Source: an uncultured Muribaculaceae bacterium
Lineage (GTDB): Bacteria > Bacteroidota > Bacteroidia > Bacteroidales > Muribaculaceae
Direction of reading: 5' to 3'
Assembly: GCA_910584185.1 (NCBI GenBank)
Contig: CAJTYC010000002.1
Span: 1 to 60,442, forward strand
DNA length: 60,442 nt
A program made the translations under genes and the position numbers. Numbering within the stretch: position 1 is the first letter of the stretch; every line of letters starts with the position of its first letter. This document shows, in pieces, positions 50,089 to 58,935 of the stretch. Below the pieces are notes generated by a model. It was not told the DNA's origin. It saw only the letters and a list, made by a program, of their open reading frames with translations, and made no database searches.

Positions 50089-50190
50089 AAGGACTTTAAG
50101 TCCTTAACGACCTTAACGACCTTAACGACCTTAACGACCTTAACGACCTTAACGACCTAAAGTCCTTAAAGCCCTTAAAGACTCTTAAAA
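50089..50190 (+). repeat. 9-bp microsatellite (GACCTTAAC), about 11 units
   Basis: gtccttaac, (gaccttaac)x5, gacctaaa, gtccttaaa, gcccttaaa, gactcttaaa. Confidence 0.9.
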
Positions 50191-50249
50191 GCCGTCGGCG
50201 AGGATTAATCAACTACAATATATAGCAAGTCTTTTTCGTTAAATCATAG

Positions 50250-53200
50250 ATGGATAAACGAAAAAGACTTGTTTTTGCAACCAACAATGCCCACAAACTC
50301 GAAGAAGCCCGCCGCATCGTGCCGGAGGGATTCGAGATTGTGTCGCTTGCCGAGATAGGTTGCCATGATGATATACCCGAAACTGCCGAGACCCTCGAGG
50401 GGAATGCCCTGATTAAGGCGCGTTGGGTACACGACCGTTACGGATATGACTGTTTCGCCGACGACACCGGCCTGATGGTCGACGCGCTCGACGGCGCGCC
50501 GGGCGTGCGTAGCGCACGTTATGCCGGTGAGGAGTGCGACTCCAAAGCCAATATGAAGAAACTTCTCTCCGAAATGTATGATAAGGAGCAGCGCGATGCC
50601 CACTTCTCCACCGTGATAGCCCTTGTGGCCGACGGTGAGGAGCATTGTTTCGTCGGGCGTGTGGATGGCCGGATAGCCCGCGAACCTCACGGCGACGGCG
50701 GCTTCGGCTACGACCCCGTGTTCGTCGCAAAGGAGTCGGGTAAGTGTTTCGCCGAAATGCTCCCCGACGAGAAGAATGCCATATCGCACCGTGGACGCGC
50801 CATGCGCAAGCTGAGCCGGTTTCTCGGCCTGCTCTCCATGCTCATCATCTTGATGCTCTGCGGCTTTACGGCCAATGCGGAGCAGTGGCGTCTGCACGGC
50901 TCATACGACGGCAATATGGAGCGAATCGTCGACACGCAGAAGTACACATATTTTCTCGGCCTTTCGCAAGATTATGAGCCTTCTGTCACGGCAATGGCAA
51001 TACATTACGGCATATTGATGCGCTACGACAAGGAGGGGGAGGAAATGATGGTGCTCAATTCGCAGAACCTGCTGAGCGGCAACACTGTGAATGCCATAGA
51101 ATATAACTTCGCCAAGAAGTATCTTGTGGCAGCGTTTGACGACGGCAATGTGGATTTGCTCTATGACAACGGCGACAAATATACTGTGCCGGGTCTGAAG
51201 CTCTCGCAATCGGCACCCTCCAAGAAAATCAACAGTCTGACAGTCGACAATTCGAGCGGCACCATATATGTCGCTACAGATTTCGGCTATTATACAATCA
51301 ACGAAGGCAATAAGGAGGTGGGCACCTCACGCGTGTATGGTGTGCCTGTAAATGCTATGGCCATGTATGACGGCAAGATGTGGCTTGCGTCTGACAATCA
51401 GGTTTATTATGGCCAACCGGGTGAATATACTTTCGACAAGCTCATGAAGGGCCCTAAGTTCGGCATAGATTCCAAACCGGGCACCGGCACTGTGTCGCGA
51501 ATGTATCCGTTGGGCAACCGCGGCATTGTAACCCTTTATGGCAAGCGTGACAACATGACCGTGGCCTTGATTTATAAGGATGGTGACAAATATACATCGC
51601 GCACGTTGGTGGGCAGCAGATCTCGCGGCATGGAGCCTCTCCCCAATGGTGTGCTGCTTTGCCACCCCAATTCTATCACAATACTTCATGCCGACGGCAA
51701 GGATGCCTTTTTCGATGTGCCGGTCGACGACCGTAACGGACTCTTCGGCACTTACAACGAGTCTGACTTCTGGCTGTCGGCCAAGCGTAAGGGCATTTCG
51801 CTGAAGCGCAAACCCTCTTCGGGCGACAACTGGACCGTGCTGAAGGACCGCTTCTTCCCCAACGTGTCGTCGAGCTTCCTGAGCTCTTATATGGCTTACA
51901 GCCCGGAATATGGTATGCTCGTGCGCAATCACAGTATGGATAACATCTTCTATCAAGATGCCGGCAACCACTTCTATATCCCGGATATGCTGTCGGGCTA
52001 CAAGGATATGAACTGGTCCCAGCTGTCGGCTACATATCGGAGCGATTCTAAGGGACTTATAGTCACCAGCCCGCGTGGCATAGCCATTGACCCTAAAAAT
52101 CCTCACCACGTGTATTGCGGCTCGGTGAAGAATGGCTTTATGCGTCTTGACCTGAAAAATGTAGAGAATTCGATACATATATCAAAGCGCACTGACGATT
52201 CCGGAGGCTATGGTCATCCCGGTTTCGTCGTGGCTGTGGAGGAATCGCCCGAAAATGCCTCGTGGCGTGCACGCTGTGTTTTCTCCGCTCCGGCATTCGA
52301 TTCTTACGGCATTCTCTGGATAAGCCACCTTGTGCCCAACAATTATCATGAGTCGGATAGCGAGGATACGGAACTGTGGTATTGGCTGCCCGAGGAGCGT
52401 GCCGCCGTCACTTCAGCCGCCAATTTCAAGCCGCTTCGCAAGCTGACAGTGAAGGGTGCAAAGATTTCAAACTCGCCGCTGATGCTGCCGCTCAAGACCT
52501 CGGCCAACCGTAATCTTATCTTGCTCCAGGGCAATACCAAGGGTGGCGGTCTGACCATCTATGACCATAACGGCACACCGACTGATACGTCTGACGACCG
52601 CATGGTCACTATGACTGAATTATATGACCAGGATGGCCAAAAGGTGGAGTTCCTGTATGGTTATGCCCACTATGAAGATCCGCTCACCGGACTCGTGTGG
52701 CTATCTACCGGTGATGACTTGATTACCTTTAAGCCCTCTGAGGCTTTCGATAATCCCTCGGCTGTGCGCCGAATTAAGGTGGCACGTAATGACGGCACCA
52801 ATCTCGCCGACTACCTGCTCAACAAGGTGCAGGTGAACGGCATAATAGCAGATAAGGCCGGCAACAAGTGGTTTGCCACAATGGGTGCGGGTGTGATGTG
52901 CACTTCTTCTGACGGACGTGAAGTGCTCGCATCATATACCACCGACAATTCTCCACTCCCCGACAATGATGTGTATTCAATAGGTTACAACCCTGACACC
53001 AATTCCATCATGGCCTCTACCGATAAGGGCCTCGCCGAACTTTTCCTCTACGGCACATCAGCCGGTGGCGGCGACGACGATGTGAGGGTTTACCCCAATC
53101 CAGTGGCACCCGACTTCTATGGTTACGTGACCATAGATGGTCTGCAAGATGACGCGATGATAAAGATAGTGGATGCTGCCGGCAACCTCGTGAAAGAATG

Positions 53201-53348
53201 CGGTGAGGCCTCCTCAGGTCGCGCCCAGTGGGATATCACCGGCATGAACCGCAAGCGAGTGCCGGGCGGTGTATATTTCATCTTGGCTACCAATGCCCCT
53301 AATGCCGACAATTTCGTGCAGGTGGGCAAGGTGCTCGTGGTGAATTGA
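50250..53348 (+). CDS. rdgB: Single ORF: RdgB/HAM1 non-canonical purine NTP pyrophosphatase (about aa 1-192) fused to a signal peptide and a PorZ-like beta-propeller with T9SS C-terminal domain
   Basis: [34 protein letters not shown]; then hydrophobic ...[41 protein letters not shown]. Confidence 0.85.
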
Positions 53349-53386: not shown

Positions 53387-54748
53387 ATGAAGAAGATAGT
53401 ATTGTCTGCGTTAGGCGTCATGGCTCTTTGCTTCTCCGGCTCTGCGCTGGAGATTGCAGTGACTCCCGGCTCGCTCAGCGCCTCTAAACTTACCATCAAC
53501 AATACCCGCGACTCGCAGCTGAAACTCACCGGTTCGGCCTCTGCGGCCGACCTTGAGTTGCTGAAGTTTATAAGCCCCTCGATCAAGGATCTTGACCTGA
53601 GTGCATTGTCGCTGCCCGGAGGCATTCTCCCCGATATGATGCTTATAGGCAGCAATGTGGAGACAGTGACGCTGCCCGAAGACCTGAAGAGTATCGGCAC
53701 TTCGGCTTTCGCTTCGAGTGCGATAAAGCAGATTCTGGTGCCGCAGTCTGTCACGAAGATTGGCGACCGTGCCTTTGCCGCCTGCCCCAATCTTGCCAAG
53801 GTTGTAATACAGGGCAACCCCACGCTCGGCACCGGTCTCTTTAAGGATGATGCTAACCTCACAGAAGTTAATTTCGGTGCCGACATAACCGAAGTCCCTG
53901 ACCGCACTTTCGAGAATTGCTCTAAATATGCGCAGCCGGTGCCTGCGGAGGTCTCCAAAATCGGCGCTTACGCTTATTGCGGCACTGCCTTGACTTCGGT
54001 CAATCTCACCCGTGTATCTGAAGTCGGCGACTTCGCGTTTGCCAATTGTGCCGAACTCGTGGAGCTGGACATAGACCATGAACATGAGATGACTGTGGGC
54101 AAAGGAGCTTTCTTTGCCGATGCCTCGATAGAGGTGCTTCCTTTTCTCTACGGATTCTATCCGTCGCTCGTGATGTCGGGGACAGCCGGAACTGTTGACC
54201 TCGATTTGAACGGCGAGAGCGTGGAGGAGGGTGCGTTTGCCAACAACAACACCGTGAAGACGCTGCGCTTGGGTGCGGATGTGAAATCAATCAAGGCTCA
54301 CGCTTTCCGCAACATGGGTTCGCTCGAGACTGTCAATGTAAATCCGCTCGGAATAAACATACCGGAGACGGACGACCTCGCATTCTCAGGTCTTGAAAAC
54401 GCCGAGGGTCGTTACGACATATTGCTGCACGTCAAGGAGAAAACCGCCGATGTGTGGCGTGAGCATCCGGTGTGGCGCCTCTTCAACATAGTGGATGGTG
54501 GTGCCGACGTGGGTTCGGTGACCGACTCTGAACTCGCCAGCGTGGGTGTGACACGCGATGGCGGCAACGTATATGTGAAATCTAACGGAGTGATCGACAG
54601 CGTGGCGATATATTCGCTCGATGGCAAGACGCTGTGGCAAGGCAGCCCCAGCGCCGATTCAGCCCATGTGGATAGCCTCCCCGAAGATGAGGTGCTGATA
54701 GTCAAAGTGGTGAGCCAAGGAGCAATAAAAGTTGTAAAACTGAAATAA
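53387..54748 (+). CDS. Secreted BspA-type leucine-rich-repeat protein with probable T9SS-like C-terminal domain
   Basis: Signal peptide; LPEDLKSIGTSAF and VTKIGDRAFAACPNL repeats; C-terminal IYSLDGK...KVVKLK. Confidence 0.8.
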   Translation: MKKIVLSALGVMALCFSGSALEIAVTPGSLSASKLTINNTRDSQLKLTGSASAADLELLKFISPSIKDLDLSALSLPGGILPDMMLIGSNVETVTLPEDLKSIGTSAFASSAIKQILVPQSVTKIGDRAFAACPNLAKVVIQGNPTLGTGLFKDDANLTEVNFGADITEVPDRTFENCSKYAQPVPAEVSKIGAYAYCGTALTSVNLTRVSEVGDFAFANCAELVELDIDHEHEMTVGKGAFFADASIEVLPFLYGFYPSLVMSGTAGTVDLDLNGESVEEGAFANNNTVKTLRLGADVKSIKAHAFRNMGSLETVNVNPLGINIPETDDLAFSGLENAEGRYDILLHVKEKTADVWREHPVWRLFNIVDGGADVGSVTDSELASVGVTRDGGNVYVKSNGVIDSVAIYSLDGKTLWQGSPSADSAHVDSLPEDEVLIVKVVSQGAIKVVKLK

Positions 54749-57849: not shown

Positions 57850-58935
57850 TCAGGGATTGTATAAGTCGTTGTTGCGGTAGTCGAGTATCTCGTTGGCGGC
57901 TTTCAGCGCCTCGTTGGCCCGGCTCTGCGGGTTGATGCGGATGGCAGTCAGGTAGTCGCGTATCGAGGATGCCCGGTCGCCGAGGCTCCAATATTTCAGC
58001 CCCCGCATTATGTATGCCTCTTCGCGATCCGGGTGCGTCTCTATGTAGCCGTTGAGTTTCTCGACGGCTTCGGCCGGCAGCATGCCTTTCACCATGTCGC
58101 GGAGTTGGTCTGACGAGTCGGACTTGTCGGTCTTGTCCGACTTGTCTGACAGGTCTGACTTGTCGGTCTTGTCTGACTCGTCTGACTTTAGGGCCGGGAA
58201 GTTCGGTCTGGGCATGGCCCGGTAGTCATCTTTCTCTATGTCGTCTTCTTGGGGTTCCATAAGTTTCCCTTCTGCCGGAAGACGGAATGATATCAGCTTG
58301 ATTTTCTTGCCCCGCGAGAGCCATTGCTGTTCGTAATATGTCTTTATCGACGACACGGGGTCAGCCATGCCTGTGCCGTAAAGGTCGTCGGTCTGCATCA
58401 GCACTTCGAAGCCGTTCAGCTCCACGAGCCGGCGTGTGTATTCGTAGAGAAAGGGGGAGTCTGTCTTGAGGTTCACTACGCCGTCGGGCTTCATGATGCC
58501 TCGGTAGAGCGAGAGAAATCTTGTGGAGGTTAGGCGCTTGCGACGCTTCTTCATCTGCGGGTCGGGAAACGTGATCCAGATGCTGTCGACTTCGCCGGGG
58601 GCGAAGAATGAGTCGATGTTTTCTATCTCGCAGCGCAGGAATGCCGCGTTGGCTATCCCTTCGCGCTCCACCTCGGAGGCTCCGGTCCACATGCGTGCTC
58701 CCTTTATGTCGATGCCCACGAAGTTGCGTGTCGGCTCGCTCTTGGCGAGTGCCACGGTGTATTCGCCGCGTCCGCAGCCAAGTTCGAGGGTGATGGGGTT
58801 GGGGTTGGCAAACACATCTTGGTGCCATGCTCCCTTATGCGGAAAACCCACGCGAAGTAATTCTTCACGCGGATACTGATACACGCATTTATATTGTGCC
58901 ATGTCGGCAAATTTCTTCAGTTTGTTTTTTCCCAT
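57850..58935 (-). CDS. trmB: tRNA (guanine-N7)-methyltransferase fused through a low-complexity linker to a small TPR module
   Basis: MGKNKLKKF, LELGCGRGEY, DIKGAR, ITFPDPQ, LKTDS, TYYE; linker SDESDKTDKSD...; TPR AYIMRG...YLTAIRINP. Confidence 0.9.
   Translation of the reverse strand: MGKNKLKKFADMAQYKCVYQYPREELLRVGFPHKGAWHQDVFANPNPITLELGCGRGEYTVALAKSEPTRNFVGIDIKGARMWTGASEVEREGIANAAFLRCEIENIDSFFAPGEVDSIWITFPDPQMKKRRKRLTSTRFLSLYRGIMKPDGVVNLKTDSPFLYEYTRRLVELNGFEVLMQTDDLYGTGMADPVSSIKTYYEQQWLSRGKKIKLISFRLPAEGKLMEPQEDDIEKDDYRAMPRPNFPALKSDESDKTDKSDLSDKSDKTDKSDSSDQLRDMVKGMLPAEAVEKLNGYIETHPDREEAYIMRGLKYWSLGDRASSIRDYLTAIRINPQSRANEALKAANEILDYRNNDLYNP
58108..58188 (-). repeat. Nine 9-bp units (AAGTCAGAC-like) translated in frame inside trmB
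   Basis: 81 bp encoding KSDESDKTDKSDLSDKSDKTDKSDSSD. Confidence 0.9.

Follow-up and report, generated by a model that had tools for sequence, protein, structure and literature searches.

How can one uninterrupted open reading frame (ORF) encode both a cytoplasmic enzyme and a protein of the cell surface, and what becomes of the chain? The question is raised by a 60,442-nucleotide stretch of DNA (the window) from an uncultured Muribaculaceae bacterium, contig CAJTYC010000002.1, in which the single ORF 50250–53348 on the forward strand encodes 1032 residues. These begin as the dITP/XTP pyrophosphatase RdgB (Ham1), which acts on cytoplasmic nucleotides, and end as PorZ, a type IX secretion system (T9SS) protein. 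Judged from its sequence, the ORF is probably translated as one chain with an internal Sec signal that signal peptidase I would cut after A210, with PorZ exported and RdgB left inside. The rdgB-porZ ORF would work like a signal-peptidase-processed polyprotein, with a predicted cut.

Residues 7–190 match the Pfam family Ham1p_like (PF01725; E = 3.5e-66, 223 bits against a cut-off of 22.5), and the profiles TIGR00042 (175.6 bits, cut-off 145.35) and PRK14823 (275.4, cut-off 272) are also exceeded. Motif residues K16, E44, K56, D71/D72, FGYD, K175, and SHR are invariant across 130 aligned fusions. In database fusions, DD[TS]GL, which we take to be the catalytic Asp motif, is present in 119 of 119, and the presumed specificity motifs are found as FGYDP in 119 and as K..xSHR in 118. 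A structure model built from the 130-sequence alignment (mean predicted local distance difference test score, pLDDT, 91.8; single-sequence prediction reached only pLDDT 35) matches the Ham1 structure 4BNQ with a template modeling (TM) score of 0.94 on the target and a root-mean-square deviation of 1.5 Å. In domain extent, catalytic and specificity motifs, and fold the ORF is like known RdgB/Ham1 proteins (PF01725, TIGR00042; PDB entries 2Q16 and 4BNQ). Known members hydrolyze ITP/XTP as soluble cytoplasmic dimers, which the RdgB part may do as well. Ordinary RdgB/Ham1, however, stops after its last helix, where the ORF continues into a membrane-spanning signal; the enzyme is thus predicted to be made within a membrane-inserted precursor.

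The remainder of the chain, residues 198–1032, matches the NCBIfam profile T9SS_PorZ (NF052228) with 321 bits against a cut-off of 260, over profile positions 11–757 of 757. The sole PDB sequence match of this part is Porphyromonas gingivalis PorZ (5M11), also the best fold match of the whole-ORF model (E = 1.6e-47, TM score 0.81 on the target). As the model comprises the RdgB fold, two propellers, and a C-terminal sandwich, both the β-propeller with a PorZ-like C-terminus and the PorZ homology of this half are borne out. The Pfam domain Por_Secre_tail is matched at residues 947–1015 with E = 8e-4, under its cut-off; within the C-terminal domain P949-N950-P951 and W994 are invariant, and G1007, Y1009, and K1027 nearly so, in the 130 aligned fusions. 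The genome also encodes PorU, PorV, PorQ, SprA, signal peptidase I, and RseP, each exceeding its profile cut-off.

PorZ of P. gingivalis has two β-propellers and a C-terminal domain (PMC5121618). It is both a cargo and a component of the T9SS, which reaches the surface after Sec export and retains its C-terminal domain (PMC5121618, PMC5445135, PMC8545088), and it needs surface delivery, with a cleavable signal (PMC5121618, PMC8545088). The ORF and its genome resemble the known protein (PG1604, 5M11, NF052228) in the two propellers, the C-terminal domain, and the accompanying PorU, PorV, PorQ, and SprA. Known PorZ has its own N-terminal signal, whereas here the signal comes after a 190-residue enzyme: the translated product does not begin with a signal peptide, the signal-like stretch starting at residue 185–191. 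Surface location with PorQ and binding of anionic lipopolysaccharide (A-LPS) are traits of known PorZ that the fused form may share; with its signal-like stretch inside the chain, the ORF is classed as containing a fused PorZ domain and not as encoding a canonical PorZ pre-protein. Profile scores of fused (294–374 bits) and unfused (275–373 bits) PorZ overlap, so the PorZ part does not appear to be decaying.

The fusion itself, claimed in the original prediction, is confirmed as genuine, both halves exceeding curated profile cut-offs within one open frame. Contigs from four runs were compared over the junction, all of them assembled contigs, which give no information on transcript ends or levels; one (X14) does not cover it. 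Two DNA contigs from different studies (X10, 50129–51548; X12, 50523–52263) span the junction with 0 differences, and a third from an RNA library (X18, 50679–50963) spans it with six substitutions and no gap, the five substitutions listed inside this interval being third-position and synonymous as read by eye. The segment around 50790–50880 is thereby bridged without indels by contigs of three other studies. A profile search of the genome (95.5% complete) returned the ORF as its only Ham1 match and its only PorZ over the cut-off, and relatives with 55–92% RdgB identity are also fused. Suspicion of an assembly or gene-calling artefact (a lost stop or a frameshift) could arise from the metagenome-type assembly (134 contigs), from the several distant fusions that are single-member clusters, and from a few, such as P0371 and P0114, in which a signal with its own Met start is still intact after the lost stop. 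The chance of this is negligible given the agreement of independent contigs at this locus, 47 genome loci that are fused with diverged, frame-keeping junctions, and 513 fused-length homologs in a protein search; at this locus an artefact is excluded by the independent contigs and the frame-keeping fused loci in relatives.

A long RdgB frame was present in 11 of 24 genomes of the same genus, and in 0 of 16 from other families, in a first draw. In a larger draw (151 genus genomes searched, source genome included; fused meaning a frame of at least 700 aa, counted by eye) 46 of 149 matched genomes were fused; matched genomes from other genera of the family gave 0 of 136. Among 135 loci examined 47 are fused, against 65 genus loci with separate rdgB and porZ; at most unfused loci rdgB, a stop, and a short spacer precede a porZ whose own signal begins at Met or TTG. 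In a tree of RdgB plus PorZ (115 loci, two short PorZ rows left out) the fusions form clade A (30 genes, including the ORF) beside unfused sisters, and clade B (17 genes). One locus, L098 (G065), was placed in neither class as an N breaks its junction; this is of fused type, and the break is probably a gap in the assembly within a gene of clade A.

Farther afield, a cluster-representative search found more RdgB-signal-PorZ proteins far outside the genus, and a follow-up from one of these gave about 100. Of 80 named genome loci 76 were parsed: 21 carry separate adjacent rdgB and porZ (in Prevotella, Paraprevotella, Barnesiella, Marinifilum, Mariniphaga, Falsiporphyromonas, and others), two are fused (one in Prevotella, one inside clade A), and 53 have no porZ in reach. 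In the Prevotella-containing family, two of 139 further matched genomes are fused. Ten RdgB frames of 500 aa in that family resembled additional fusions, but in all six checked the extension is N-terminal and PorZ is absent. The rdgB-porZ gene pair is old and the fusion is patchy. On the sequences retrieved, the fusion recurs in Prevotella-related and other Bacteroidales lineages, many of them from the gut.

Unfused relatives end RdgB a few residues past the SHR helix. In the fusions this helix runs directly into the hydrophobic stretch, the PorZ start with its Lys/Arg and the spacer having been lost, and RdgB's last helix takes the place of PorZ's own Met-Lys-Lys start (Table 1). In the ORF M185 is followed by a basic stretch (186–190), a hydrophobic stretch (191–206), and T-A-N-A/E (207–211), with R186, K187, and R190 of the last RdgB helix in the place of a signal n-region; a basic n-region, a hydrophobic h-region, and small residues at −3 and −1 are all present. 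The idea that the last RdgB helix doubles as the start of a signal is well founded, since the same helix ends unfused RdgB and is continuous from 180 to 203 in the model, confidence dropping from 90 to 55 on leaving the RdgB domain. Five relatives (P0114, P0371, P0108, P0361, and P0375) retain, after the RdgB helix, a linker or a complete signal with its own Met start, and are possibly early read-through stages or assembly errors.

The geometry of the junction is well kept. From SHR to the first PorZ Trp there are 32–36 residues in 108 of 116 database fusions (119, with three skipped), and the best 11-residue hydropathy of the h-region is 3.05 in the ORF, with a median of 2.8 in the 116. At the fixed register of A-x-A, Ala is found at each of −3 and −1 in 82 of the 116, while no middle residue exceeds 18; 24 of 30 clade A genes have Ala at both positions and the middle position is free. 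The register is that of the unfused sisters' signal peptides. A strong hydrophobic core is present in 73 of 74 distinct distant junctions, and in 47 of them Gln occupies the predicted +1 position, to which the site score is blind; a small residue followed by Gln occurs in 53 of these 74 junction windows, compared with 285 of 2504 background windows. Gln at +1 is exposed in most signal peptidase I substrates of Bacteroidetes (the Q-rule, PMC5837995), so its frequency in the distant fusions fits signal peptidase I cleavage. When the genome's 803 long ORFs were scanned crudely, 21 had a single internal hydrophobic segment and three of these an A-x-A-like site; by eye, only rdgB-porZ shows the order of basic stretch, hydrophobic stretch, and A-x-A.

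Table 1. Features of the rdgB-porZ ORF (window positions) and the second PorZ-like gene of the genome
Feature	Position	Strand	Basis
rdgB-porZ fusion ORF, 1032 aa plus stop	50250..53348	+	Start scores like a real start; contigs bridge the junction
RdgB/Ham1 dITP/XTP pyrophosphatase domain, aa 1–192	50250..50825	+	Pfam and NCBIfam, motifs, fold
SHR motif and last RdgB helix, aa 179–192; contains M185 (ATG at 50802)	50784..50825	+	Relatives, model
Hydrophobic h-region of internal signal, aa 191–206	50820..50867	+	Hydropathy
c-region carrying A-x-A; signal peptidase I cut predicted at A210/E211 (50879/50880)	50868..50879	+	Homology, simple score
Predicted mature PorZ, aa 211–1032: two β-propellers and C-terminal domain	50880..53345	+	NF052228, model
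T9SS C-terminal domain, approximately aa 944–1032	53079..53345	+	Por_Secre_tail, conserved residues
Second PorZ-like gene (L139)	G000:C20:11361-13766		889-aa frame, own signal peptide, under PorZ cut-off

A plausible course of events begins with RdgB, which would fold first in the cytoplasm. The hydrophobic stretch would then enter Sec in the usual N-in orientation (co-translational targeting is a guess), PorZ would be threaded out across the inner membrane, and signal peptidase I would cut after A210. Freed PorZ would pass through the type IX translocon to the surface, to join PorQ, PorU, and PorV, and RdgB would either be held at the cytoplasmic side of the inner membrane by a stub of about 20 residues or be freed by RseP. 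With RseP encoded in the genome, the RdgB part possibly need not stay tethered; a paper on RseP and signal remnants is cited by title in a review (PMC10202637). A signal-peptidase cut is favored because the A-x-A register is kept, Gln is found at +1 in distant fusions, and no usable internal start was found. Several observations weigh against this reading, some of which belong to the two alternatives discussed next. The +1 residue of the ORF is Glu and not Gln (unfused sisters have E in 13 of 18 and D in 4 of 18), the cut site was placed by homology and a simple score and not by a trained predictor, and one origin of clades A and B is not rejected on RpoB (p = 0.06).

The first alternative is that two in-frame products are made, exported PorZ coming mostly from an internal start (M185, M170, or clade-specific starts) and the long product supplying RdgB. 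In the original prediction M185 opened a typical Sec signal with an A-X-A site, and either a polyprotein cut by signal peptidase or an internal start was proposed. M185 with R-K-L-S-R and the hydrophobic stretch does read as a normal 26-residue signal, and the order of basic stretch, hydrophobic stretch, and A-x-A stands; M185 as a start codon is not supported. A start-site model trained on the genome itself, with 132 confident starts set against 11,602 internal ATGs (area under the curve 0.95 in cross-validation), gives 3.0 for the ORF start and −7.6 for M185, which is the median of internal ATGs and under 98% of real starts, and no candidate from residue 157 to 215 scores above M185. Across relatives, the top-scoring candidate within the helix reaches a median of −7.6 in fusions versus −4.4 at the equivalent site of unfused genes; the median for real porZ starts of unfused genes is 6.9, a best-of-window value that is biased upward. 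Nor is a start codon well conserved: between SHR+3 and SHR+14 an ATG is missing from 14 of the 30 genes of clade A, and ATG, GTG, and TTG are all missing from seven, and the M185-equivalent Met is kept in 16 of 30 genes after fusion versus 17 of 18 unfused sisters. Synonymous sites upstream show no A/T enrichment, and local folding is −10.8 kcal/mol versus −1.3 at real porZ starts. Of the distant junctions, 51 of 74 lack a Met before the core (protein level only), and two of three read as DNA have no ATG, GTG, or TTG.

On the other side, all 17 clade B fusions have an ATG at SHR+9, three of which score fairly, within the range of real starts, and in L050, a gene of clade A, the earlier Met170-equivalent scores high as a start. 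In the sister clade TTG is often the first codon of separate porZ genes, so unusual starts do occur. Whichever start serves PorZ, RdgB comes from the long product only, and this product carries the signal and would still be cut. Judged from these sequences, an internal start is unlikely here and cannot be the general explanation; in clade B it may be used. Of the two possibilities originally raised, the polyprotein cut by signal peptidase is favored, the start at M185 being poor both in score and in conservation. A promoter scan found no Bacteroidetes-type −7 box inside the ORF; fused rdgB genes contain such a box less often (3 of 47) than unfused ones do (19 of 75), and a sigma-70 scan was at chance level. 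Apparent TTG starts were seen in the unfused sister-clade porZ genes of L041, L043, L045, L047, L048, L052, L053, L055, and L076, and an ATGA overlap in five other unfused rdgB/porZ pairs (L091, L092, L101, L112, and L118).

A second alternative, which we consider improbable, is a signal anchor that is uncleaved or rarely cleaved, with the whole protein in the inner membrane, RdgB inside and PorZ held on the periplasmic side, and with the function of PorZ at the surface changed or taken over by a paralog. It draws on the clade A junctions, where the uncharged run (18 versus 16 residues in unfused signals) and the 15-residue hydropathy (2.44 versus 2.21) could suit an uncut anchor, and where Arg is gained at SHR+10 (22 of 30 genes versus 0 of 18 unfused sisters); these differences are descriptions and not tests, because the genes are kin and not independent. 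Internal signals of the endoplasmic reticulum system are not always cut (PMC2114505). A candidate paralog exists, as a second, divergent PorZ-like gene lies elsewhere in the genome (139 bits against the cut-off of 260), with its own N-terminal signal. All 24 clade A genomes checked have it, as against none of five from clade B and 15 of 25 in which the genes are unfused. Its presence in eight of nine unfused sisters, and in those 15 unfused genomes, argues that it is older than the fusion, and the five genomes checked from clade B yielded no PorZ-like gene besides the fused one. Compensation for the fusion by the second gene was rejected as a general rule. The anchor is further opposed by retention of A-x-A and, in distant lineages, of Gln at +1 across separate origins, by conservation of the export-type C-terminal domain residues, and by the distance from R190 to A210, which at about 20 residues is of signal-peptide length.

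A signal-peptidase cut between two encoded proteins would have at least one likeness among known systems. FbcH of Bradyrhizobium japonicum, the cytochrome b-c1 precursor and the nearest case known to us, is reportedly one gene for two proteins, with an internal signal-like linker that is said to be cut by signal peptidase. FbcH, as reported, and rdgB-porZ are each one ORF for two proteins joined by an internal signal, and as for a polyprotein the parts of the latter are separate genes elsewhere (65 genus loci, 21 pairs in other lineages). Both FbcH products are said to be membrane subunits of one complex, whereas RdgB and PorZ are unrelated and belong to the cytoplasm and the cell surface; rdgB-porZ also differs in having a signal that overlaps a structural helix of the first protein, and a fusion that arose many times. 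Anti-sigma factors of the RsiV type share with the ORF a cytoplasmic N-terminal part, one membrane segment, and A-x-A (PMC4183432). Signal peptidase cuts RsiV at A-x-A behind these parts, and the site-2 protease RasP/RseP then clears the membrane stub (PMC4183432). In RsiV the membrane segment is at residues 37–59, in contrast to the ORF, where a 190-residue folded enzyme comes first; moreover, the RsiV cut is ligand-gated and destroys RsiV (PMC4183432), whereas both halves of the ORF would work and nothing points to gating. No anti-sigma domain is among the Pfam and NCBIfam family matches of the ORF, and RsiV is a mechanistic precedent only. No description of an RdgB-PorZ fusion was found in the literature searched, most subscription journals and supplements lying outside the search; HAM1 or pyrophosphatase is not mentioned in a T9SS review (PMC5445135) or in the PorZ structure paper (PMC5121618).

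The patchy distribution leads to the question of how often the fusion arose. In an RpoB tree clades A and B are each recovered at 100 and A is joined to its unfused sisters at 99 (51 of 60 genomes, partial or missing rpoB accounting for the reduction; G158 was dropped for a wrong frame). Forcing A and B into one origin is rejected on RdgB plus PorZ (approximately unbiased test, p = 0.015), A itself being split in two there. A broad tree of 103 rows, in which fused rows are over-sampled by design and several are single-member clusters, has 16 changes between fused and unfused states, 13 of them forced by strong branches. Some of these may be reversals, because unfused Prevotella genes nest among fused ones. 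The safe reading of these trees is that the fusion arose in at least five multi-member lineages.

It is likely that the fusion recurs because RdgB's basic, amphipathic last helix already resembles a signal n-region; since the genes are adjacent with short gaps, a small in-frame loss of the spacer would work at once. A near-neutral, easily repeated event fits best. No benefit is needed for recurrence, and 1:1 synthesis may follow. That the fusion was instead selected, with RdgB working at the membrane or coupled to type IX secretion (for example by RsiV-like regulated release), seems very doubtful. We know of no biochemical link between the activities of RdgB and PorZ. Selection could be read from the many independent origins with nearly equal junction length, from the age and breadth of rdgB-porZ adjacency (the 21 separate pairs reach from Prevotella to Marinifilum), and from the occurrence of RdgB behind membrane proteins. 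Most relatives, however, are unfused, both in the other genera of the family and in the Prevotella-containing family; the unfused genes nested among fused Prevotella ones suggest easy reversal, and in other proteins RdgB is also fused to unrelated soluble neighbors that lie downstream of it (such as QueA, RadC, and PurN). Being joined to so many soluble and membrane neighbors, RdgB appears to tolerate additions and membrane tethering. The membrane cases, in other Bacteroidota, have RdgB behind YitT (P0143, P0154, and P0382) or a CAAX protease (P0177, P0212, P0226, and P0230); loci L281–L286 also belong to these membrane cases, and P0385 is a single LeuS-YitT-RdgB chain. L103 (G052; 372 aa) is an RdgB with a proline-rich C-terminal extension and no adjacent porZ.

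The usual assumption is that a cleavable signal in bacteria sits at the N-terminus. The named database members of the fusion retrieved here are annotated only as RdgB, an annotation that hides an essential type IX component. Other passengers are found behind what may be an RdgB-signal cassette. In P0097 (627 aa, one contig) RdgB is joined through a similar internal signal to a BspA-type leucine-rich-repeat protein, and a clade of proteins of about 1550 aa (P0171 and the P0286–P0303 group) has RdgB, an internal signal, and two tandem PorZ-type units. As a leucine-rich-repeat gene follows porZ in the window (53387–54748), P0097 may be a porZ deletion that reuses the cassette. It is tempting to speculate on a repeatedly evolved cytoplasm-to-surface polyprotein, in which the enzyme helix serves as n-region, signal peptidase I cuts, RseP frees RdgB, and the cassette exports other passengers, so that N-terminal prediction misses a hidden secreted class filed as plain RdgB. 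This wider proposal is tentative; it may well hold, while falling somewhat short of probable. Many diverged natural alleles of several independent origins, with unfused sisters as controls, present a cleavable-looking signal behind a whole folded enzyme, and make it testable at what depth in a chain a signal is still accepted by Sec and signal peptidase I, which targeting route is taken, and what the fate of the stub is. They also show how a cross-compartment fusion can arise without harm. No new biochemical activity is implied, and the fusion may be near-neutral.

The window also contains repeats outside the ORF. Just upstream of rdgB, at 50102–50188, is a 9-bp tandem repeat with the unit CCTTAACGA in 9.7 copies. 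Similar 9-mers lie between other genes at 1582, 27694, 29086, and 47904, and like 9-bp repeats occur on unrelated contigs of other runs. A further repeat of 9/18/27 bp, at 58108–58188, lies inside the ORF 57850–58935 on the reverse strand and is translated as an S/T-D-K repeat. The protein of this ORF is presumably tRNA methyltransferase-like and continues into a further domain beyond the methyltransferase-like part.

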